Positions 10,740 to 48,774 of a stretch of 62,067 nucleotides of DNA are shown here, in pieces (position 1 is the first letter of the stretch; the number at the start of each line of letters is the position of its first letter). The DNA comes from an uncultured Gammaproteobacteria bacterium (GTDB lineage Bacteria; Patescibacteriota; Patescibacteriia; UBA1558; S5-K13). The position numbers and the translations under genes were made by a program. A model generated the notes under the pieces. The model had not been told where the DNA came from, made no database searches, and saw only the letters and a program-made list of their open reading frames with translations. The stretch lies in contig CAZAOE010000005.1 in the NCBI GenBank assembly GCA_964486685.1, positions 1-62,067 on the forward strand, given 5' to 3'.

Positions 10740-10839
10740 CCCTCCTTCGCCAAAGGATTCGGAGGACTATCCTTCTATTTCCTAACGGAAATTACGGATG
10801 GCCTGTGCCATCCGAAGCTCTGCGAAGCAGAGCGAAGGA
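10740..10839. repeat. Palindromic repeat cluster at the tRNA-Gly 3' end
   Basis: CCTCCTTCGCCAAAGGATTCGGAGG hairpin, TGGCCTGTGCCATCCGAAGC, GCTCTGCGAAGCAGAGC, GCGAAGGAT; motifs shared with 48591-48697. Confidence 0.8.
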
Positions 10840-10914
10840 TGGAGCGGGTAGGGGGAATCGAACCCCCGTCTTCAGCTTGGAAAGCTGTAATAATAACCAT
10901 TATACTATACCCGC
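10840..10914 (-). tRNA. tRNA-Gly(TCC)
   Basis: GCGGGTA acceptor stem, CAGC-TTTCCAA-GCTG anticodon arm, GTTCGATTC, encoded CCA. Confidence 0.95.
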
Positions 10915-22637: not shown

Positions 22638-25256
22638 ATGTTTTTAAAAAAAATTGAAATCCATGGTTTTAAATCCTTTGCTAATAAAACCGAATTGCAA
22701 TTTGATCAAAACCTAACTACTATAGTTGGACCAAATGGTTCGGGAAAATCCAACATTGCTGATGCCATTCGTTGGGCCACTGGCGAGCAAAGCCAAAAAC
22801 TTCTTCGCACCAAAAAAGCTGAAGAAGTTATTTTTGCTGGGTCAGATCACAAAAACCGCCTAGGTATGGCTGAGGTTAATCTTTATATAGACAATTCTCA
22901 AGGCAAAATACCAATTGATTTTAAAGAAGTGGTAATTACTCGTCGAGTTTATCGAACCGGGGAAAGCGAATATATTATTAATAAATCTAAAGTTCGACTA
23001 GCGGATATCCAATTGCTTTTAGCTCGAGCTAATTTTGGACAGCATAATTATTCTATTATTGGTCAAGGAATGATTGATTCTATTTTAACCCAATCATCTG
23101 AAAGTCGAAAAGGTTTTTTTGACGAGGCCACTGGAGTTAAGGTCTATCAAATTAAAAAAGAAAAAGCTCAACACAAATATTCTAATACACAAAATAATTT
23201 ACAACAAAGCAAAGCCATTATTAAAGAAATTTTCCCACGTTTAAAATATTTAACTAGGCAGGTTAATAAATTAGCTAAACGACAAGAGATTAAAAAACAC
23301 TTAATTAAATTACAAAATGATTATTATGGATTTTTAATTTCCGAAATCAATCAAAAAATCAAGCATACTGAAGAAAAAATGAAAGGCAAGAATAAACATA
23401 AAACTGATTTAGAGGAGCAAATGAAAAAAATTCAAGACAAATTATATGCCGAAGAAAATAAAAACTCTTATGCTGACGAATTTAATAAAATTCAAACTGA
23501 ATATAATGATTTAATTAATCAAAAAAATAAATTGACTCATGATAAAATTGTTTATCAAGGAAAATTAGATTTAGAATTTTCTGGTTCTGGAAATAATATC
23601 AACTGGATTACAAATCAAAAAAATGAATTAGAAGAAGAATATCATAATAATCAAAAAGAGTTAAAAAAATTAAAAGAAAAATTAATAAATATTCAGCAAG
23701 ATTTAAATACTAAAACCGAAAAACAAGACGAATTTTTGAAAAAAATTAAAAATATTCAAGAAGAACTAGAAAGCCAAATTAAATCCGCTGGTCCGGAATT
23801 AGAATCTGATAATTTAAAACTTAAAATTAAAAAACTTAATTCTATTATCAAAAAATTAATAGAAAATATTGATAAAATAGAGAAAAAAGAGCTGAAAAAA
23901 GAAATTTATTTTATTGGCAAAGAAATAGAATATTTAGATAAAGAAATTAATAAAGAACAGAATGACAATAATTATCAAGAATTACAAAATAAATTTCAAA
24001 AATATTTAATAACCAAGGACTCTTATGTTAATGAAATATACGAATTAAAAAATAAAAAGAATCTTTTAGAAAATAAAATTGAAAATATAGAAAAAAAACA
24101 AATCAATCTGGAAAGTAAATTGGAAAAACTAAAATTAGAAATAAAAATGTCTACCTCTACCGATAAATCAGAAACTGAAAAGGAAATAAATAAAATGATT
24201 GATAGTTTGAATGAAAAAATAAAAGATACTGACCAAAAAATTTCCTCAGTCCAAGAAAAAATAGATGATTTAGATAAAAAAAATAAAGAGGAAAGAAGGG
24301 GTTTATTTCAAATGCAAAGAGAATCGCAAAAAATACAAAACGATTTAAATCAAATTAATTCTGAAATTCAAGATATTAATATTGAATTAGCTAAAGAACA
24401 AACTCATCATGAGGATTTAGAAAGGGAAATTGAATATGAAGAGCTTAAAAAAGAAAACTTAAATCTACAGATAGAGAATTTAGAAAAAAATGAAATATTT
24501 AATAAAATTAATAAGTTTAAAAGGCAATTGAGTCAAATCGGCGGGATAGAAGACGATATTGAAGATGAACATCAAGAAGTAAAAAATAAATTTGAATTTT
24601 TAGAAAAACAGATCGAAGATTTAGAAAAAGCCTCTAAAAATTTAAAGGAAATGATTGATGATCTAAACGAAAAAATAGAAGAAAAATTCTATTCCAATTT
24701 TAAAAAAATTAATGAAACCTTTAATAAATATTTTCAAATATTATTTAATGGCGGACACGCTAATTTAACAATTAAAAAAGAAAGTATTAAGAAAAAAGAA
24801 CTGACAGATTCTGAAAATATAGAAAATGAAGCAGAAAAAGAAATAGAAACAGAGACAGAAGCAGAAATTAATAAAACCTATGAAGGCCGAGCAGAAAAAA
24901 TCAGTGATATTATAATTTCAGTCAAATTACCCGGTAAAAAACAGGCCAATATGACCTATCTTTCTGGCGGAGAAAAGGCCCTTACTTCTATCGCCTTAAT
25001 TTGTTCTATTATATATAATAATCCCTCTCCTTTTGTGGTTTTAGATGAAGTAGATGCCGCTTTAGATGAGGCTAATTCCGAAAAATTCGCAGAAATAATA
25101 GAAAATTTAAAAAATAAAACTCAATTTATTTGTATCAGCCACAATCGAGCCACTATGTATAGAGCCGACACTCTTTATGGAGTAACCATGGATAATGAAA
25201 GTGTTTCTAAACTTCTTTCTTTAAATTTTAAAGAAGCTCAAAAATATACCGATTAA
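22638..25256 (+). CDS. smc: SMC family chromosome segregation ATPase (short, 872 aa)
   Basis: GFKSF, GPNGSGKSN, QG, LSGGEK, LDEVDAALD, ISH; coiled coil between the head halves. Confidence 0.9.
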   Translation: MFLKKIEIHGFKSFANKTELQFDQNLTTIVGPNGSGKSNIADAIRWATGEQSQKLLRTKKAEEVIFAGSDHKNRLGMAEVNLYIDNSQGKIPIDFKEVVITRRVYRTGESEYIINKSKVRLADIQLLLARANFGQHNYSIIGQGMIDSILTQSSESRKGFFDEATGVKVYQIKKEKAQHKYSNTQNNLQQSKAIIKEIFPRLKYLTRQVNKLAKRQEIKKHLIKLQNDYYGFLISEINQKIKHTEEKMKGKNKHKTDLEEQMKKIQDKLYAEENKNSYADEFNKIQTEYNDLINQKNKLTHDKIVYQGKLDLEFSGSGNNINWITNQKNELEEEYHNNQKELKKLKEKLINIQQDLNTKTEKQDEFLKKIKNIQEELESQIKSAGPELESDNLKLKIKKLNSIIKKLIENIDKIEKKELKKEIYFIGKEIEYLDKEINKEQNDNNYQELQNKFQKYLITKDSYVNEIYELKNKKNLLENKIENIEKKQINLESKLEKLKLEIKMSTSTDKSETEKEINKMIDSLNEKIKDTDQKISSVQEKIDDLDKKNKEERRGLFQMQRESQKIQNDLNQINSEIQDINIELAKEQTHHEDLEREIEYEELKKENLNLQIENLEKNEIFNKINKFKRQLSQIGGIEDDIEDEHQEVKNKFEFLEKQIEDLEKASKNLKEMIDDLNEKIEEKFYSNFKKINETFNKYFQILFNGGHANLTIKKESIKKKELTDSENIENEAEKEIETETEAEINKTYEGRAEKISDIIISVKLPGKKQANMTYLSGGEKALTSIALICSIIYNNPSPFVVLDEVDAALDEANSEKFAEIIENLKNKTQFICISHNRATMYRADTLYGVTMDNESVSKLLSLNFKEAQKYTD

Positions 25257-25289
25257 TCCCGTAAGACAATTCATCAAACGGGATTAATA

Positions 25290-25318
25290 TTGACAAAAGC
25301 AAATAAAAACCCTATTAT
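25290..25318 (+). promoter_or_regulatory. sigma70 promoter of rpsP
   Basis: TTGACA-17 bp-TATTAT. Confidence 0.7.
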
Positions 25319-25367
25319 ATAAAAACGAAACGTCATTACGCTTTTTTTATTATTAAAAATTTATAAC

Positions 25368-26129
25368 ATGTTAACTATTAGATTCAAAAGAGTTGGAAGA
25401 AAAAAAATTCCTATCTATCGAATAGTTTTAATGGAAAAACATAAAGATCCTTGGGCTGATTATAAAGAAAAGCTCGGATTTTATAATCCTAAAACTAAAG
25501 AAATAGAATTAAACGCGGAAAGAATAAAATATTGGATATCAGTTGGGGCTCAACCCTCTAATACTGTCCATAATTTATTAGTAAATAATGGAGTGATTGA
25601 AGGTGAAAAAAAGAAAGCCGTCAAAATCAGTAAAAAAAGACTGGCCCGGGAGAAAAAGAAAAAAGAAGCCACAGAAAAAGAAACTAAAACTAAGCAAGCA
25701 AAAACCGATCAAGCTAATTCTAAAGAAAAAGTAGAAACTAAAGAAGTAACAAAAACCACAGAAAGTCCTAAAGAAGAAACTAAGGATGAGGGGTCCCAAG
25801 ATAAGAAACCTGAAGCAGAAAAACCTGAAGATAAAAAAGTAAAAGAAGAGGTTAAGGAAGTTAAAAAGGATATCGAAGAAGTAAAAACAGAAATTAAACC
25901 TGAAAAAAAAGAAAAGATTAAAAAACAAGCAAAGCCCACAGAAACCCCAAAAGAAGAACCTATGGCTGAAGAAAAAAAAGAACAAAAACCTATCAAAGAA
26001 AAGAAAGAATCATCCTCCACTGCTATGCCTGCTGGCAAACAGGAAGCTACGGATGACAAGAAAACCAAAGAAGATAAGGTTAAAGATGAACCTAAGAAAG
26101 TTAAAGAAAAAAGTCCTGAGGAAAAATAA
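25368..26129 (+). CDS. rpsP: 30S ribosomal protein S16 with long K/E-rich C-terminal extension
   Basis: IRF.R.G.K..P.YRIV, LG.YNP, YW...GAQPS.TV in the first ~80 aa. Confidence 0.93.
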   Translation: MLTIRFKRVGRKKIPIYRIVLMEKHKDPWADYKEKLGFYNPKTKEIELNAERIKYWISVGAQPSNTVHNLLVNNGVIEGEKKKAVKISKKRLAREKKKKEATEKETKTKQAKTDQANSKEKVETKEVTKTTESPKEETKDEGSQDKKPEAEKPEDKKVKEEVKEVKKDIEEVKTEIKPEKKEKIKKQAKPTETPKEEPMAEEKKEQKPIKEKKESSSTAMPAGKQEATDDKKTKEDKVKDEPKKVKEKSPEEK

Positions 26130-26247
26130 TTAAAAATTGAGTCATTCCTGCCTTCGCCCCTCGATAAACTCAGGGCTACGGCAGGCAGGTAAAATTCATT
26201 TTAAATTGAAAATTTAGCAAATTTTAATTTTATTAAAATTCGCGTAT

Positions 26248-26322
26248 GCGGGTATCGTATAGTGGCTATTACACGGCCTTGCCAAGGCTGAGAGAGGGGT
26301 CCGATTCCCCTTACCCGCTCCA
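26248..26322 (+). tRNA. tRNA-Gly(GCC)
   Basis: GCGGGTA/TACCCGC acceptor stem, CGGCC-TTGCCAA-GGCTG anticodon arm, T-loop variant TCCGATT, encoded CCA. Confidence 0.93.
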
Positions 26323-26612
26323 TGAACTATTCGTCAAGCTCAGTAAACTATTCACTTCGTTCAAGTTTACTGCAGGTCGCTTGACTCAAGTTCATGGCGC
26401 GGCCATCAGTGCTATCTACAACATTGTTCAACGAATAGTTCATGTGGTGAACCCGAATGGAATGAGTGGTTTACCACTATCTCACTTTATTCGCTCAGGT
26501 TTATGGCGCTGCCACATATAAACCTATCAGAACGAATGGTTTATGTAGTGAACCCGAACGACTTGCAGTAAACCCGAACGAAACAAAGTGAAGAGAGTGG
26601 TTTACTGAGGGA
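26321..26612. repeat. Composite inverted-repeat array between tRNA-Gly and the GIY-YIG gene
   Basis: CATGAACTATTCGT (26321-26334)/ACGAATAGTTCATG (26431-26444); CTCAGTAAAC..GTTTACTGCA.GTCG (26339-26379) inverted at 26559-26609; three GT(G/A)AACCCGAA units. Confidence 0.85.
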
Positions 26613-26656
26613 GTGGTTCACTGTTATTACATACATAAAAATTAAAGAAAAGCGAT

Positions 26657-26917
26657 ATGACATTTTATTTTGTTTATATTTTATTTAGTTTAAAAGACAA
26701 AAAATTGTATATCGGTTTTACAAATAATCTCAAAAGTAGATATTCAAAACACAAAAATGGTAAAGTTAAATCAACTTGCAATAGAAGACCTTTGAAATTG
26801 ATTTTTTATGAGGCCTATTTAAATAAGTATGATGCTTTAAGAAGAGAAAGATATTTTAAAACCAATAAAGGTAAAACTACTTTGCGACAAATGTTAAAGA
26901 ATTTTTTGGAAGAATAA
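26657..26917 (+). CDS. Small standalone GIY-YIG endonuclease
   Basis: FVYIL..LYIGFT.NL..R...H..G, RP..L..YE, A..RE..K motifs. Confidence 0.9.
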   Translation: MTFYFVYILFSLKDKKLYIGFTNNLKSRYSKHKNGKVKSTCNRRPLKLIFYEAYLNKYDALRRERYFKTNKGKTTLRQMLKNFLEE

Positions 26918-27087
26918 TTATCAAAAAACCAGCGCTGAAATGCTGATTTTTTATTTAAAAAAATAAAAAGGCGCTAAATAAATAACGCCTAAAAAATTAC
27001 CAATTTTTATTGTCAATAAAATATTCAAGAAAAAAAGAAGCTCTATTGTAGAGCCCCTAAACTTAACATCCGTGATCAAACCTAATT

Positions 27088-27255
27088 TTACGGTTTGTCG
27101 TGGATTGTGATTCCACCAGGAAGTCGGGTGGTCACGACGTAGTCATTTTCACCAGGACCAAAAGGATGAATATGCGTATCTCCTCCTCCTGGTAGGGGCA
27201 CAGAACTTTTTTTAATAATGTTCTGCTGCCATTGGGTGGTTCCGTTGTTATCCAT
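27088..27255 (-). CDS. Small hypothetical protein (55 aa)
   Basis: AAGGAGG 6 nt before ATG 27255; TTGACA/TG-TATATT promoter; downstream GCTCTA/TAGAGC hairpin. Confidence 0.65.
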   Translation of the reverse strand: MDNNGTTQWQQNIIKKSSVPLPGGGDTHIHPFGPGENDYVVTTRLPGGITIHDKP

Positions 27256-27316
27256 GATAATCCTCCTTAGGATTTGATACTTTAAATATAACAATTAGCT
27301 AAAATTTGTCAAATTT

Positions 27317-27835
27317 CTAAATCAAATGCCCCACCTCCCAGAACAAAGCTACCCATAAAGCAAATTTAACGCAGAACTGCAGGGCCACGCGGATATGCTT
27401 TATTTTTTGTGGAAAATAATATTCTAAAAATAATAAAAATATAAAAAACAATTCTCCCAAAATAAACAATTTAATAATTTCTAATTTATTGCCAATTAAA
27501 TTTAAAACTAAAATATATAAAACTATATGGTTAATCCGATCGCTGATATGATCAAAGTATTTACCGCTTAAAGTAGCCATATTTCTATATCTAGCCACTG
27601 CGCCATCTAATAAATCCATAAAATACACTACAAAAAATATACTCACCTGCCACCAAGCAGGATTAAAAACTGCCAAAGGTATCCATAACAAGACAATAAT
27701 CAAACGAAATAAAGTTATGTGATTAGGAATAATTTGTGGCGATAAACGCTTAGTAATAAAAAATAAGACCTCGTCTTTTTTAAAACGAAGAGTATTGTGA
27801 GAATCGCTTAAATGCAAACCAATTTTGTTAAGCAT
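27317..27835 (-). CDS. CDP-alcohol phosphatidyltransferase family
   Basis: PNHIT..R and D.LDGAVAR....T.SG..FD...D signature. Confidence 0.85.
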   Translation of the reverse strand: MLNKIGLHLSDSHNTLRFKKDEVLFFITKRLSPQIIPNHITLFRLIIVLLWIPLAVFNPAWWQVSIFFVVYFMDLLDGAVARYRNMATLSGKYFDHISDRINHIVLYILVLNLIGNKLEIIKLFILGELFFIFLLFLEYYFPQKIKHIRVALQFCVKFALWVALFWEVGHLI

Positions 27836-27844
27836 GGATTATTT

Positions 27845-28858
27845 TTATTTATTAAATAAACTTTTAGCTAAATTCCAATATTCTGGATTTCCATTAATTT
27901 TTCTTAAATACCACCACTCAGCGCCCCAAAGATAGGCCTGATTTAAATCAGTATTAATTGCATATTGAAGATTTGCTTTAAATTGTTTTAAATCAAAAGA
28001 TTTATTGGACTCTGTGGCTGGTAAATCAGCTAAGGTGCCATTAGGAACCCAGGGCTCGGCCTGAAGCTCACTAATAATAATATCCTCTTTTTTTATACCC
28101 AATAAATTGGCCTTAAATCTATAAAACCAAGATGGCAGAGGATAGCGAAAATAGCCAAACCATTTATTCCAAACCACTCTATATATAGTAGTGCCCAAGA
28201 TATCCGCCAAACCCGCTTCTCTTCGCCAACTACTTAATTCTCCCGAAGCAGATATAAGTATTTTTCTGTCATCTAAACTTTTAACTAAATCAACTTCTTT
28301 TCGTAAAAAATTTTCATCGCCATCTGGACAAACGCCAAAACTATTTAATAAGGGTTCATTTTCTATCTGCCAAATAATAATTTCCTCGTGGTCTTTATAT
28401 TGATTTACGGCTTGAGCTATCATTTCTAAGCTCTCTTCTTCTATTTCTTCTTTCTTTAAATCTTTTAACCATTGCGGAGAATGGCATTCTGGCCAGCGAG
28501 GCAGACGCCAGCCAATAGTAGCAATAAATTTGACTCCTTGCTTTTTTCCTTCTCTAAAAAGATAGTCATAATCATTAAAATCAAAATGGTTATCTTTAAT
28601 TTCCACATCATCCCAATAAATTGGTATGCGAATATATTTAACCCCTAAATCATTAATAATGGCTTGATAGGTCTCTTTCCAATCTAAACCAATCTCATCA
28701 CAAAATTTTCTAGAAAAAGTAATCCCCCAGTAATTTTTATTGGCCTGACTTAAATCAATATTAGGCGGATCATGTTTAGCGAATTTTAAAAACCATAAAG
28801 CCCCTCCTATAATTAGGATTGTTATTAACCAAATTATCATTTTTTTAAACCTTCCCAT
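27845..28858 (-). CDS. Membrane-anchored glycoside hydrolase, GH-A clan-like
   Basis: N-terminal TM; RIP.YW..E, QIENEP (acid/base), ISELQAEPW (nucleophile). Confidence 0.7.
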   Translation of the reverse strand: MGRFKKMIIWLITILIIGGALWFLKFAKHDPPNIDLSQANKNYWGITFSRKFCDEIGLDWKETYQAIINDLGVKYIRIPIYWDDVEIKDNHFDFNDYDYLFREGKKQGVKFIATIGWRLPRWPECHSPQWLKDLKKEEIEEESLEMIAQAVNQYKDHEEIIIWQIENEPLLNSFGVCPDGDENFLRKEVDLVKSLDDRKILISASGELSSWRREAGLADILGTTIYRVVWNKWFGYFRYPLPSWFYRFKANLLGIKKEDIIISELQAEPWVPNGTLADLPATESNKSFDLKQFKANLQYAINTDLNQAYLWGAEWWYLRKINGNPEYWNLAKSLFNK

Positions 28859-29053
28859 TTTAAATTTTAAAAATTATATATTTAAATAAAATTAACTAAT
28901 TGCTAGAAATTAATAAGTGTAAAATGCGATACTAATAATCGATGCCAATATAGCGATACCAATATACTAATCTCATGCGAATAATACGAATATACTAATT
29001 ATTAGTATTAATTTGTATATTAGTATCATCCAATTCGTATCATTAGTATATAA

Positions 29054-29986
29054 TTAATAAATAAAATATAAACCTAAACCTATTAATATAATAGCAATTA
29101 TTTTTTGAATAATTATGGAGCGAGATATATTTTCCTTAATTGCCTTAGGTCTAAATACCGTTATAATGGCTCCTAAAATTAATAAAAAAACATATTGTAC
29201 ACCCTGTAGAGCATTAACTAAAACTACTGAGCCCAAAGCAATGGCATAATTCTGTAAAAAAGACCCCATGGCCGCTAAGCCCTGATTTCCTAAAAATAAA
29301 AACCTGCCCTTATCTTTTGCTAAACTCTTAATACTCTTAAAAATATCTTGACGTTGTTTTTTGTTAATCAATAAAAATAAAACTGCTATAAAAGTTCCTA
29401 ATCTTATCCAAATAAAGCCACTCATAAAACCTTGCTGACTGTATAAATATTTAGAACCAATAAAAAATAAGGAAAAAAATAAAGCTGACATTATAGCCGT
29501 AATTATTCCTTTTTTGGGATCATCCTTGGTCAGACCAAACCAATGGGCAAACTTATTCCAAATATTTTTTTTATCTGGTATCCAAGAAATAATAATAGTT
29601 CCAATTAATAAAAGGGCTATAGCTAACCATTGTCGGGGCGCAAATCTCTCTCCTAAAAAAACTACTGAAAAGAAAATAGTAAATAAAGGTATGGTCCCGC
29701 CAATTAAAGTAATTATTTTTGAAGTGTCTCCATCTTTTAAGGCCCTGTATAAAAATAAAAGCGCTGGTGGAAAAAGAGCCCCAATAATTAAACTTAAAAT
29801 AAATAATAAAAATCCCGGCCAGACCAAAAACCAAGGAGCTAAAAATAAAGCTAATAAACTTAAAACGCCCACTAAAAATGTATAGACCTTATAATTAGGA
29901 ATTACATTGCCTAATAAAAATTTATCAGCCAAATTAACAATGGCTAAAAACAAATAAGCCAAAACTGCGATTAAAATAAAAGACAT
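29054..29986 (-). CDS. EamA/DMT family transporter
   Basis: About 10 TM in two repeats; P.FT..FS..FLGE motif. Confidence 0.75.
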   Translation of the reverse strand: MSFILIAVLAYLFLAIVNLADKFLLGNVIPNYKVYTFLVGVLSLLALFLAPWFLVWPGFLLFILSLIIGALFPPALLFLYRALKDGDTSKIITLIGGTIPLFTIFFSVVFLGERFAPRQWLAIALLLIGTIIISWIPDKKNIWNKFAHWFGLTKDDPKKGIITAIMSALFFSLFFIGSKYLYSQQGFMSGFIWIRLGTFIAVLFLLINKKQRQDIFKSIKSLAKDKGRFLFLGNQGLAAMGSFLQNYAIALGSVVLVNALQGVQYVFLLILGAIITVFRPKAIKENISRSIIIQKIIAIILIGLGLYFIY

Positions 29987-47424: not shown

Positions 47425-48177
47425 TTATGCCTCCCAATATTTAGAAACAATCGTGTTTCTAGTTTTCTCTTTTACTTTTTTAGTTGCCCTTATCTTTTCT
47501 TTGATAGGTAAGGATTTTCTAAAAAAAATTTCTTCATCCAGAAAATCTTTAATTGGATCTAAAAACTCAACAGTAACTTTTCCGGAGTTAATTAGTTTCT
47601 TATTTGTCTTATTATAGATGAAATAACTACCCTTAATTACAACCGGAATAATAACAGCTCCAACTTCATAAGCAATAATAAAGGGACCTCTTTTAAAACG
47701 CGATATTTTATTATCATATCCGCTAGTTCCTTCAGCAAACATGACAACATTAATTCCTTGTTCTAGTGCTTTTTCTATTTTTTCATATGTCTCTTCATCG
47801 GGATTTTTTCTGTCCACGGGTATATTTCCACTTCGTCCTAAAATCCAACCAAAAATCGCTACTTTAAGTAATTCTATTTTAAAAACAATACGAAAAGCTA
47901 TTTTTAATACAAAAACAATAATCGGAGTATCAAAATAAGACATATGGTTGGAAACCAAAATTGCCCCTTGCAAATTTTTTAACTTTTCTAAACCCTTAAC
48001 CTCAACTTCTATTCCACAAAATTCTAAAATAATTCTACTCCAAATAAGACTAAAGGATTGATAAAGTTCCGGTCCTTTTTTCTTACCGCCAATTAGTAAA
48101 AAAAATCCCGCCACCAAAGAGATTGAAGCACTCCATAAAGCTATGAAAATTATCCTTATCAAACTAATGGCATTCAT
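47425..48177 (-). CDS. plsC: 1-acyl-sn-glycerol-3-phosphate acyltransferase
   Basis: NH.SYFD (HX4D), VDR, FAEGT, FK.GPF, IIPV. Confidence 0.88.
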   Translation of the reverse strand: MNAISLIRIIFIALWSASISLVAGFFLLIGGKKKGPELYQSFSLIWSRIILEFCGIEVEVKGLEKLKNLQGAILVSNHMSYFDTPIIVFVLKIAFRIVFKIELLKVAIFGWILGRSGNIPVDRKNPDEETYEKIEKALEQGINVVMFAEGTSGYDNKISRFKRGPFIIAYEVGAVIIPVVIKGSYFIYNKTNKKLINSGKVTVEFLDPIKDFLDEEIFFRKSLPIKEKIRATKKVKEKTRNTIVSKYWEA

Positions 48178-48390
48178 CTCGCCTCCTGCGCCATAAACTT
48201 GAATGAAACGAATAGTTTATGGCTATATTTTTTATTTTTCAATATCTTAATTTAATACTAATTTTAAAATAAGTCAACAAAAAATGCCCTTAAGGGCAAA
48301 TACTTTAAAAAAATAACAAACAACAAATTCCTAATAACAAATAATTTAAAATTTAGTCTGAGATTTGAAATTTGGAATTTAAACTACTTA

Positions 48391-48467
48391 TGGTGCGTCT
48401 ACCTGGACTTGAACCAGGGACCTCGACTTTATAAGAGTCGCGCTCTAACCAGCTGAGCTATAGACGC
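48391..48467 (-). tRNA. tRNA-Ile(TAT)
   Basis: GCGTCTA/TAGACGC acceptor stem, AGCTCAGCTGGTTAGAGC D-arm, CGACT-CTTATAA-AGTCG anticodon arm, GTTCAAGTC, ACCA. Confidence 0.92.
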
Positions 48468-48590: not shown

Positions 48591-48697
48591 TGGCCGTGCC
48601 ATCCGAAGCGCAAATTAAATATTAATATTTTAAAATATATTATCAATGTCCTCCTTCATATAAAACTACGGAGGACATCCTTCGCTTGCGCGAAGGA
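48591..48697. repeat. Palindromic repeat cluster at the tRNA-Val 3' end
   Basis: TGGCCGTGCCATCCGAAGC, GTCCTCC..GGAGGAC, ATCCTTCGC-TTGC-GCGAAGGAT. Confidence 0.8.
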
Positions 48698-48774
48698 TGG
48701 TGGGCATGCTCGGATTTGAACCGAGGACCTCTACGATGTCAACGTAGCACTCTAACCAACTGAGCTACATGCCC
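48698..48774 (-). tRNA. tRNA-Val(GAC)
   Basis: GGGCATG acceptor stem, CTACG-TTGACAT-CGTAG anticodon arm, GTTCAAATC, ACCA. Confidence 0.95.

Follow-up and report, generated by a model that had tools for sequence, protein, structure and literature searches.

What is the GC-rich, self-complementary block that begins at the very end of a tRNA-Gly(GCC) gene and leads into the gene of an 86-aa nuclease? The question is raised by a 62,067-nucleotide stretch of Patescibacteria DNA (contig CAZAOE010000005.1 of assembly GCA_964486685.1), which was analysed at its full length and is called the window here. Its genome, G000, was obtained from lake water and comprises 1.09 Mb in 51 contigs with 30% G+C. 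It was compared with four congeners, G001 to G004 (G002 is 97% complete in 6 contigs, G004 only 80% complete), and with further relatives. The initial annotation, made from the sequence, had proposed a candidate autonomous element in which a GIY-YIG nuclease cleaves or spreads the palindromes in the manner of RAYT with REPs. We give about an even chance to the reading that a family of selfish DNA modules settles in and beside tRNA genes and that the window locus is one of its copies. That these modules form a new class of prokaryotic mobile element, with a UPF0213 GIY-YIG nuclease dedicated to clade-specific palindromes that home to the CCA end, T-loop or D-loop of tRNA genes, is advanced only tentatively.

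The module is anchored on the tRNA-Gly(GCC) gene at 26248-26322 (+), whose CCA is encoded at 26320-26322 (ARAGORN; Rfam RF00005, 53.9 bits). About 310 bp of nested palindromes extend from this CCA (26320 to about 26630), in GC-rich DNA with dense self-complementarity. The 311-nt segment 26320-26630 folded at -111.5 kcal/mol on the + strand (z -6.8 against shuffles) and at -102.0 kcal/mol on the - strand (z -6.1). The perfect 14-bp inverted repeat reported earlier was recovered (26321-26334 / 26431-26444, 14/14 complementary). The larger one, reported as 26339-26379 versus 26559-26609, resolved into two adjoining pairs, 26356-26379/26559-26582 (24 nt, 88%) and 26339-26358/26590-26609 (20 nt, 85%). 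A further pair, 26315-26328 / 26389-26402 (14 nt, 93%), takes in the last bases of the tRNA itself. The 290-bp repeat is no single structure: it consists of arrayed units, nested or in tandem, whose superfamily extends across phyla. By sequence and inverted-repeat search, the first unit, of family A (defined below), occupies 26320-26405 (+) and opens with the CCA of the tRNA; its outer stem is CCATGAACT...AGTTCATGG. In its loop, a second unit, CAGTAAAC...GTTTACTG, is nested, and the closing motif is TGG-C-NNN-GCCA. The basic unit without the nested one is also found behind tRNA-Gly(CCC) on contig C17 of the same genome. Further tandem and nested family-A units fill 26431-26630 (+), namely ACGAATAGTTCATG, three GTRAACCCGAA...GGTTYAC hairpins and a second GTTTATGG-C-NNN-GCCA, and the right arms of the large inverted repeats fall within them. 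The nuclease gene follows at 26657-26917 (+), and a terminator-like hairpin with a T-run (26930-26945, within a part taken as 26930-26953, +) marks the 3' end of the tRNA/palindrome/GIY-YIG unit. The early description of the order of parts, from the repeat at the tRNA CCA end through the 86-aa gene to the hairpin behind it, therefore stands.

Comparison with the congeners revealed that the block behind the window tRNA is an insertion. At the same rpsP/tRNA-Gly(GCC) locus, G003 and G004 carry family-A palindromes and a GIY-YIG gene 83% identical to that of the window. In G001 and G002, a hairpin with a T-run terminator comes directly after the tRNA CCA, and the motif behind the terminator of these empty sites is found in G003 downstream of the GIY-YIG gene. 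The gene is thus polymorphic at a conserved site (occupied in G000, G003 and G004, empty in G001 and G002), and palindromes and nuclease are jointly present or jointly absent there in 5/5 congeners. The spacer between rpsP and the tRNA is short and AT-rich in G001 and G002, and it holds three different palindromes in G000, G003 and G004. In G002 as a whole, a CCA-inclusive palindrome of at least 7 nt was found at 0/37 tRNAs examined (of 41 tRNA matches), versus 9/42 in G000. Next to the G002 tRNAs come plain hairpin and T-run terminators or another tRNA. Both G000 and G003 have an A, B or D palindrome behind eight tRNAs with a shared anticodon, and the family is the same in only 2/8, which indicates rapid turnover. 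The earlier proposal is upheld in part, for mobility, by the absence of the insertion at the orthologous site of two congeners and by the dispersal of the repeat family.

The stand-alone nuclease is of the UPF0213 type and consists of the catalytic domain only. It matches Pfam PF01541 over residues 4-73 with 58.2 bits (cut-off 22.6; E 1.1e-15). Matches in the PDB are 1zg2 (UPF0213 protein BH0048, E 8e-6) and 1ywl (EF2693, E 2e-3), and no NCBIfam model claims the 86-aa protein. Among 102 copies, with a median length of 86 aa (range 78-106), seven residues show no variation (Y7, G20, R28, H32, T40, E64 and K68), while Y18 and E52 are conserved in 98%. The catalytic residues of the superfamily are the Tyr of GIY, the Tyr-x-Gly of YIG, the Arg, the His and the metal-binding Glu. 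Since the active-site residues are invariant, most copies are probably active nucleases.

For an autonomous element, the initial annotation had looked to four properties of the homologues: upstream tRNAs, flanking palindromes, agreement between nuclease clade and repeat family, and correlation with repeat copy number. All four were found, the agreement of clade and family as an association. GIY-YIG protein matches occur in 27/31 related genomes, at 0 to 17 copies per genome. Within the genus, the congeners carry 0, 6, 7 and 17 matches (0 in G002, 17 in G003), and several copies contain stop codons. This is not the fixed synteny of a vertically inherited gene. A co-oriented tRNA stands beside the gene in 9/11 of the best loci other than the window's own (L001). 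An independent scan with one genome per GTDB species retained 80 loci. Besides Patescibacteria, the genomes with these loci bore labels such as Omnitrophota, Bacteroidia, Saprospiraceae and Planctomycetales. Two of the 80, L053 and L054, coincide with L003 (in G003) and L002 (in G004) of the best loci. Within 500 bp, a same-strand tRNA was present upstream at 37/80 loci and downstream at 19/80, that is, at 56 in all, and an opposite-strand tRNA at 0/80. At the remaining 24/80 loci no tRNA lay within 500 bp, and 7 of those 24 had less than 300 bp of upstream sequence. As a baseline, random 260-bp windows of G000 had a same-strand tRNA that close in 1.7% of cases and an opposite-strand one in 1.6%. 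In G003, 10/17 GIY-YIG matches lie within 300 bp of a co-oriented tRNA (coordinates read by eye).

The spacers between tRNA and nuclease gene in other phyla have a common form. From the CCA, a hairpin CCA-NNN-ACC...GGT-NNN-TGG is followed by C-NNN-GCCA, so that CCA-anchored hairpins flank the homologues in many phyla. Judged by its sequence, family A of G000 belongs to this superfamily. In 6/37 cases the 8 nt after TGG directly copy the 3' end of the tRNA (1.5 on average and 5 at most in shuffles). In one subgroup, insertion may thus have produced a duplication; the window locus is not among these cases. Nuclease genes that lie immediately upstream of a tRNA are themselves preceded by a 5' piece of that tRNA, whose T-loop or D-loop is split by a GC-rich palindrome. 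At two loci (L011 and L012), the 3' end of the tRNA is duplicated behind the nuclease gene. These duplications bear on a familiar kind of tRNA-targeted element, the one inserted by a tyrosine integrase. No integrase-like open reading frame (ORF) was seen in the ORF list of 24000-29500 (Pfam was run on four neighbouring ORFs only), and no direct duplication of the tRNA end was seen at the window locus; such an element was therefore rejected. The earlier statement that integrase and att duplication are lacking thus holds for the locus, but relatives do have partial tRNA duplications around their cassettes, with no integrase in the 1.5-kb flanks inspected.

Palindromes of this kind are common behind the tRNAs of G000, in which the 130 nt behind each of the 46 tRNAs were inspected. 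Many trailers form a hairpin directly at the CCA. The 5' arm includes the CCA, the 3' arm ends in TGG, and C-NNN-GCCA follows. Family A reads CCA-TRAACY...RGTTYA-TGG and family B CCA-TYCTTCG...CGRA-TGG; family D consists of long hairpins with the start YTCGAYTC. Judged by their first bases, trailers opening with family A, B or D number 21/44 in G000 (11 of family A, 8 of B and 2 of D), 18/37 in G003 and 0/37 in G002. Among the 40 CCATRAAC sites of G000, 11 start exactly at a tRNA CCA. The motif GTRAACCCGAA, which stands for the second A-type unit, occurs six times on the written strand and its reverse complement never; 5/6 copies lie 94-246 nt behind a tRNA. Because each unit ends in GCCA, the CCA is regenerated at the 3' end of the unit. 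The nested and tandem arrangement suggests that arrays would grow by repeated insertion at the regenerated CCA. Apart from these families, a duplicated 3' part of the tRNA was observed 50-100 nt behind the gene at six positions of G000 (C10 ~8031+, C11 ~714-, C26 ~7027+, C6 ~8210+, C7 ~13353+ and C30 ~8201-). Three of these trailers come after the common motif GTGAGAATCTTTAYCC. They look like small insertions into tRNA genes with the 3' end restored.

The number of nuclease genes follows the number of palindromic trailers. A trailer was counted as GC-rich if its first 80 nt had at least 38% G+C. Up to 30 loci per genome supplied the tRNAs, each of which needed 100 nt or more of sequence behind it; those with another tRNA within 80 nt were excluded. 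With 0 GIY-YIG matches, the GC-rich trailers were 2/37 in G002, 2/39 in G022 and 0/38 in G023. They were 6/37 in G027 with 3 matches, 17/42 in G000 with 5, 12/34 in G018 with 8, 24/40 in G017 with 9 and 22/37 in G003 with 17. The background of G017 is 44% G+C, so the 38% threshold discriminates less there. Three within-family contrasts (f1, f6 and f7) are contained in these eight genomes. Spearman rho between GIY-YIG matches and GC-rich trailers was 0.93 (8 genomes), and between GIY-YIG matches and strict A+B patterns 0.54 (31 genomes), both uncorrected for relatedness. The strict A and B patterns were matched in 9/31 relatives only, every one of them GIY-positive; since 27/31 genomes are GIY-positive, presence or absence of the strict patterns alone is weak evidence. 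Tightly spaced tRNA pairs number 13-15 in GIY-free genomes and 0-8 in GIY-rich ones, with 13 in G027.

The kind of palindrome also varies with the kind of nuclease. A maximum-likelihood tree was built from 102 distinct GIY-YIG proteins, of which 97 were classified by flank and 5 remained unclassified for lack of upstream sequence. The flank class required 40 changes on the tree, against 57.9 +/- 2.5 in 1000 label shuffles (minimum 50). The clade of the window's nuclease (45 rows, support 92) includes 17/20 of the CCA-NNN-ACC cases, and these span at least eight tRNAs (Gly, Asn, Gln, Ser, Tyr, Pro, Lys and Met). The family-D copies form a separate clade (support 99) across tRNAs Ala, Ile, Met and Arg. 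One of the paralogs in G000, on C27, comes after tRNA-Ala and a family-D palindrome of ~230 bp, in the same layout as in the window. Nuclease copies with CCCGCC palindromes inserted in D-loops cluster across tRNAs Lys, Pro and Met. The pattern suggests that nuclease clades are associated with palindrome families.

One subfamily is located away from tRNAs. The G000 paralogs on C17 and C6 are bounded by the terminal inverted repeat (TIR) YACCCYGTTAAAT...ATTTAACRGGGTR, which also bounds the GIY-YIG genes L006 and L007, so that three families of the order are involved in all. These TIR copies form one clade (support 99). In G000 the same TIR is also present as ~15 solo palindromes of ~45 bp with two conserved loop types, one of which copies has a 12-nt flanking direct repeat (by eye). 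No transposase gene was found inside the TIR or the palindromic units. The TIR subfamily shows the pattern of an autonomous element with non-autonomous derivatives. The C6 paralog (C6:13220-13510) is itself broken by a 35-39-bp solo palindrome of its own bounding TIR. Its two pieces account for two of the 5 GIY-YIG matches in G000, which correspond to 4 genes.

Insertion polymorphism, tRNA targeting, strict co-orientation, rapid turnover between congeners, covariation of copy number and of clade with repeat, a conserved active site and strand-symmetric palindromes of DNA type are the observations from which the following mechanism starts. The module would have two parts. The first consists of GC-rich palindromic units that start at the tRNA's CCA and end in TGG-C-NNN-GCCA, and that would thereby restore a CCA for further units. 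The second is the gene of a minimal UPF0213-type GIY-YIG endonuclease, which points the same way as the tRNA in every case and probably owes its expression to read-through from there. The nuclease would act on DNA. Its target may be either the palindrome specific to its clade, in hairpin or cruciform form, or a tRNA flank that is still unoccupied, and it would break the DNA. Further tRNA genes would then receive the cassette or the short palindromes by repair copying, much as with homing endonuclease genes. The short palindromes would be non-autonomous passengers, like REPs with RAYT or MITEs, the miniature transposable elements with inverted repeats, with a transposase. The cut at palindromes or empty sites, the copying route and the co-transcription are inferred.

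Several findings weigh against this module. The link between nuclease and palindromes is one of covariation, which could stem from shared ancestry or from a shared permissiveness of some genomes to junk DNA. The tree has 89 alignment columns, only 12/99 of its inner branches are strongly supported and relatives share labels, so it gives association and not proof of co-evolution. Family B stands beside a GIY-YIG gene only occasionally (in 2 cases, which both belong to G004). At the window locus, neither a right boundary of the cassette nor a target-site duplication could be defined, and a copy of the tRNA 3' end follows the palindrome in only 6/37 cases. In several relatives a terminator lies between palindromes and nuclease gene, which makes co-transcription uncertain. 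Unlike characterised homing endonucleases, the 86-aa protein has no separate DNA-binding domain beside the Pfam domain at residues 4-73. As it leaves no room for one, specificity would have to come from the catalytic domain, from oligomerisation on the palindrome or from DNA structure.

Two further findings of this kind are shared with a competing explanation. The palindromes far outnumber the nuclease genes in G000 (21 A/B/D trailers against 4 genes), and many of its palindromic trailers have no GIY-YIG gene close by. Both would be expected if two independent selfish residents were present, a SegB-like tRNA-targeting GIY-YIG gene and unrelated mobile repeats, repair scars or cassette remnants, the palindromes piling up behind tRNAs since insertions are tolerated there. 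Selfish DNA of different kinds often abounds in the same genomes, and this would yield the correlation. There is also a precedent for the gene alone. According to the available part of its description, T4 SegB is encoded by a GIY-YIG gene in a tRNA cluster and is inherited preferentially by cleaving the tRNA-region DNA of alleles lacking it (PMC2330249). On the other hand, nuclease clades follow palindrome families across different tRNAs and taxa, one inverted repeat both bounds GIY-YIG genes in three families and makes solo copies, and at the orthologous locus palindromes and nuclease are jointly present or absent in 5/5 congeners. We regard the explanation by two residents as rather unlikely and keep to the single module.

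It should also be asked whether the palindromes act as RNA. The hairpins could be tRNA 3'-trailer structures, paired with the CCA, for processing, protection or termination, with the GIY-YIG protein as a processing ribonuclease or a regulated gene; a possible variant is addiction, in which tRNAs with such trailers need the nuclease. The exact start at the CCA and the strict orientation with the tRNA would fit this explanation, as would the covarying stems and conserved internal loop of family B. In addition, contigs of two RNA libraries (26106-26411 and 26234-26406) bridge the tRNA 3' end into the trailer, although these libraries may contain DNA. With the same limit, RNA-library contigs extend over the palindromes and over the nuclease gene's 3' part, and they are compatible with co-transcription of tRNA, trailer and nuclease. 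The contigs leave rpsP, two short trailer stretches and the GIY-YIG gene's 5' part uncovered, which proves nothing. Against function as RNA, one congener and two other relatives have no such trailers at all and use plain terminators instead; the trailers are therefore not needed for tRNA maturation. Among 49 CCA-inclusive palindromes, the tRNA strand has 20 G·U pairs and the antisense strand 14, and the better-folding strand is antisense in 26, sense in 12 and tied in 11. Selection on the hairpins as RNA was accordingly rejected, as there is neither a G·U excess nor a stability bias on the transcribed strand. The units are near-perfect Watson-Crick palindromes and strand-symmetric, as expected of young or DNA-level elements. 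The TIR subfamily away from tRNAs points in the same direction, and we know of no GIY-YIG ribonuclease. A known ribozyme or small RNA was rejected as well, since in an Rfam scan of 25500-27500 (E up to 10) only the tRNA exceeded the threshold and 9 other matches were far below their gathering scores. Taken together, an RNA-level role is improbable.

Another enzyme could move the palindromes, with the GIY-YIG gene as a bystander. The candidates are a Y1 HUH transposase or RAYT, and a reverse transcriptase priming on tRNA CCA ends. REP/RAYT and IS200/IS605 systems use hairpins with a fixed flanking short motif, and G000 has two Y1_Tnp matches (C44, E 6e-42; C3, E 1e-8) and three RVT_1 matches. 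However, no Y1_Tnp match was found in G003, in spite of its 18/37 A/B/D trailers, or in G001, and the Y1 genes of G000 are flanked by different hairpins. A Y1 transposase or RAYT is thus unlikely as the driver. The same holds for a reverse transcriptase, because RVT_1 does not follow the trailers: it is present in trailer-free G022, and it was not found in trailer-bearing G004 (80% complete) or G027. Overall, a mover other than the GIY-YIG nuclease is highly improbable. The Y1 (IS200-like) transposase genes of G000 lie at C3:29246-29750 and C44:97-528. The C3 gene encodes 200 aa, is followed by two copies of a CAAGGGGTTGCARCCCCTTG hairpin and has relatives of ~200 aa, in single copy, across many related genomes; we consider it a candidate RAYT that has a REP of its own. 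The three RVT_1 genes of this 1.09-Mb genome are located at C24:3235-3936, C2:65086-65715 and C7:14982-15593.

The selfish module was then set against known systems. Seg proteins have ~200 aa or more and a separate DNA-binding domain. The window's gene resembles that of SegB in being a selfish GIY-YIG gene among tRNA genes, variable in presence between relatives. In contrast to Seg, its product has 86 aa with the catalytic domain only, it is chromosomal in Patescibacteria and other bacteria and not carried by phage, and its family is coupled to clade-specific palindromes at up to 17 copies per 1-Mb genome. With REP/RAYT (REPtron) and IS200/IS605 it shares a small nuclease gene flanked by its own palindromes, with repeats far outnumbering the gene. 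As in REP/RAYT, the repeat type varies along with the nuclease clade, and the hairpin borders on a fixed short motif (CCA in the present case). Dispersed, outnumbering and clade-specific palindromes are what a REPtron has, and here they amount to resemblance and not to membership. Membership was rejected because the gene flanked by the repeats is GIY-YIG and no HUH Y1, Y1_Tnp being found elsewhere in G000. Moreover, unlike REPs, the repeats are anchored at tRNA ends and form nested arrays, and the nuclease is multi-copy and variable rather than single-copy and domesticated. The module works like a blend of free-standing GIY-YIG homing genes and REP/RAYT, and it fails the defining features of each.

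Two further groups of elements are similar in part. PstI palindromes of Neurospora mitochondria reportedly flank tRNA genes (Yin, Heckman and RajBhandary, 1981). Like such fungal mitochondrial GC palindromes, the units are mobile, GC-rich in an AT-rich small genome, concentrated beside tRNA genes and mutually nested; the fungal ones differ in being organellar, with no dedicated nuclease gene known and unrelated sequence families. Yeast mitochondrial GC clusters are a second fungal case, as far as the available part of the source goes (PMC4478555). The TIR subfamily alone is like MITEs, in which short non-coding units share inverted-repeat ends with a longer coding element: its inverted repeat is common to the coding copies (C17 and C6 of G000, L006 and L007) and the ~15 solo copies. 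Unlike MITEs, it has no DDE transposase, and the sole gene between the inverted repeats encodes a GIY-YIG nuclease of 80-90 aa.

Small stand-alone UPF0213-type GIY-YIG proteins are common in bacteria, and structures have been solved, with the function unassigned. We take E. coli YhbQ and B. subtilis YazA to be members. The window's protein has the size of 1zg2 and 1ywl and, by sequence, the same fold family, and the PDB depositor names of both assign no function. In the literature searched, mostly without subscription journals, nothing ties the UPF0213 family to tRNA genes or palindromes. Likewise, a link between small GIY-YIG genes of bacteria and either tRNA genes or MITE/REP-like palindromes was reported in none of the main texts searched, which included few subscription journals. 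In the available part of one paper, a GIY-YIG domain protein is merely listed among the genes exchanged by Patescibacteria (PMC12455944). In Patescibacteria and several other phyla, small GIY-YIG genes are mobile, tRNA-associated, selfish and coupled to their own palindromes. This kind of element is apparently undescribed and widespread. We rate it as a homing-endonuclease-like selfish gene in a new form, with a fair chance that it makes up a new class of palindrome-propagating element.

If true, a function would be given to a large family of 'hypothetical' small nucleases, and a GIY-YIG counterpart of REP/RAYT and IS200/IS605 would exist. Confirmation would add a third type of nuclease, besides HUH and DDE, that propagates short palindromic repeats in prokaryotes. 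The module would also explain why tRNA clusters of many Patescibacteria are pushed apart and decorated with GC-rich hairpins, and thus the remodelling of tRNA loci in reduced genomes. The hypothesis can be reduced to an 86-aa enzyme and a hairpin substrate of 22-45 bp, and a very small structure- or sequence-specific nuclease is a possible tool. A practical warning concerns AT-rich metagenome-assembled genomes, in which a GC-rich 'structured RNA' behind a tRNA may in fact be mobile DNA and not functional RNA.

Other palindromes of the window belong to the same or to further families. A family-A unit in canonical orientation lies at 48191-48222 (-), 14 bp upstream of the gene of a PlsC-type acyltransferase (47425-48177, -; Pfam PF01553, E 9e-27). 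It had been called a solo copy upstream of plsC; the unit is indeed there, but it also lies in the trailer of tRNA-Ile(TAT) (48391-48467, -), 170-200 bp downstream and co-oriented. A family-B palindrome, CCATCCTTCG...CGGATGG-C-NNNN-GCCATCC, extends at 10795-10842 (-) from the CCA of tRNA-Gly(TCC) (10840-10914, -), and a palindromic trailer of family-B type at 48591-48700 (-) from the CCA of tRNA-Val(GAC) (48698-48774, -). Between the rpsP stop codon and the tRNA-Gly(GCC) gene, a GC-rich palindrome at 26146-26192 with CCTGCC...GGCAGG arms and an inner hairpin represents another dispersed repeat family and matches dispersed sites in G003 and G004. A further repeat family consists of AT-rich short tandem repeats of the type TAATAGTTTAATTG. 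They are found behind tRNA-Thr(GGT) on C4, tRNA-Arg(TCT) on C12, tRNA-Glu on C6/C7 and tRNA-Asp on C15, and they also adjoin solo TIR palindromes.

By Pfam, the neighbours of the module are the ribosomal protein S16 gene upstream of the tRNA and a CDP-alcohol phosphatidyltransferase gene downstream on the opposite strand. The S16 protein (25368-26129, +) has 253 aa; its Pfam domain covers residues 8-64, and the remainder is a long Lys/Glu-rich tail. A small ORF at 27088-27252 (-) encodes 54 aa from an ATG after a strong AAGGAGG site, or 68 aa from an upstream TTG. It has no Pfam match, and it has no DNA match in G003, though the neighbouring gene matches there. The deepest RNA-library contigs of the region (depth 8 and 31) fall on this ORF. 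A tRNA-Ile with the anticodon TAT (UAU), like that at 48391-48467 (-), was also called in G002, G003, G022, G023 and G017, and it is therefore a regular trait of the group and no error.

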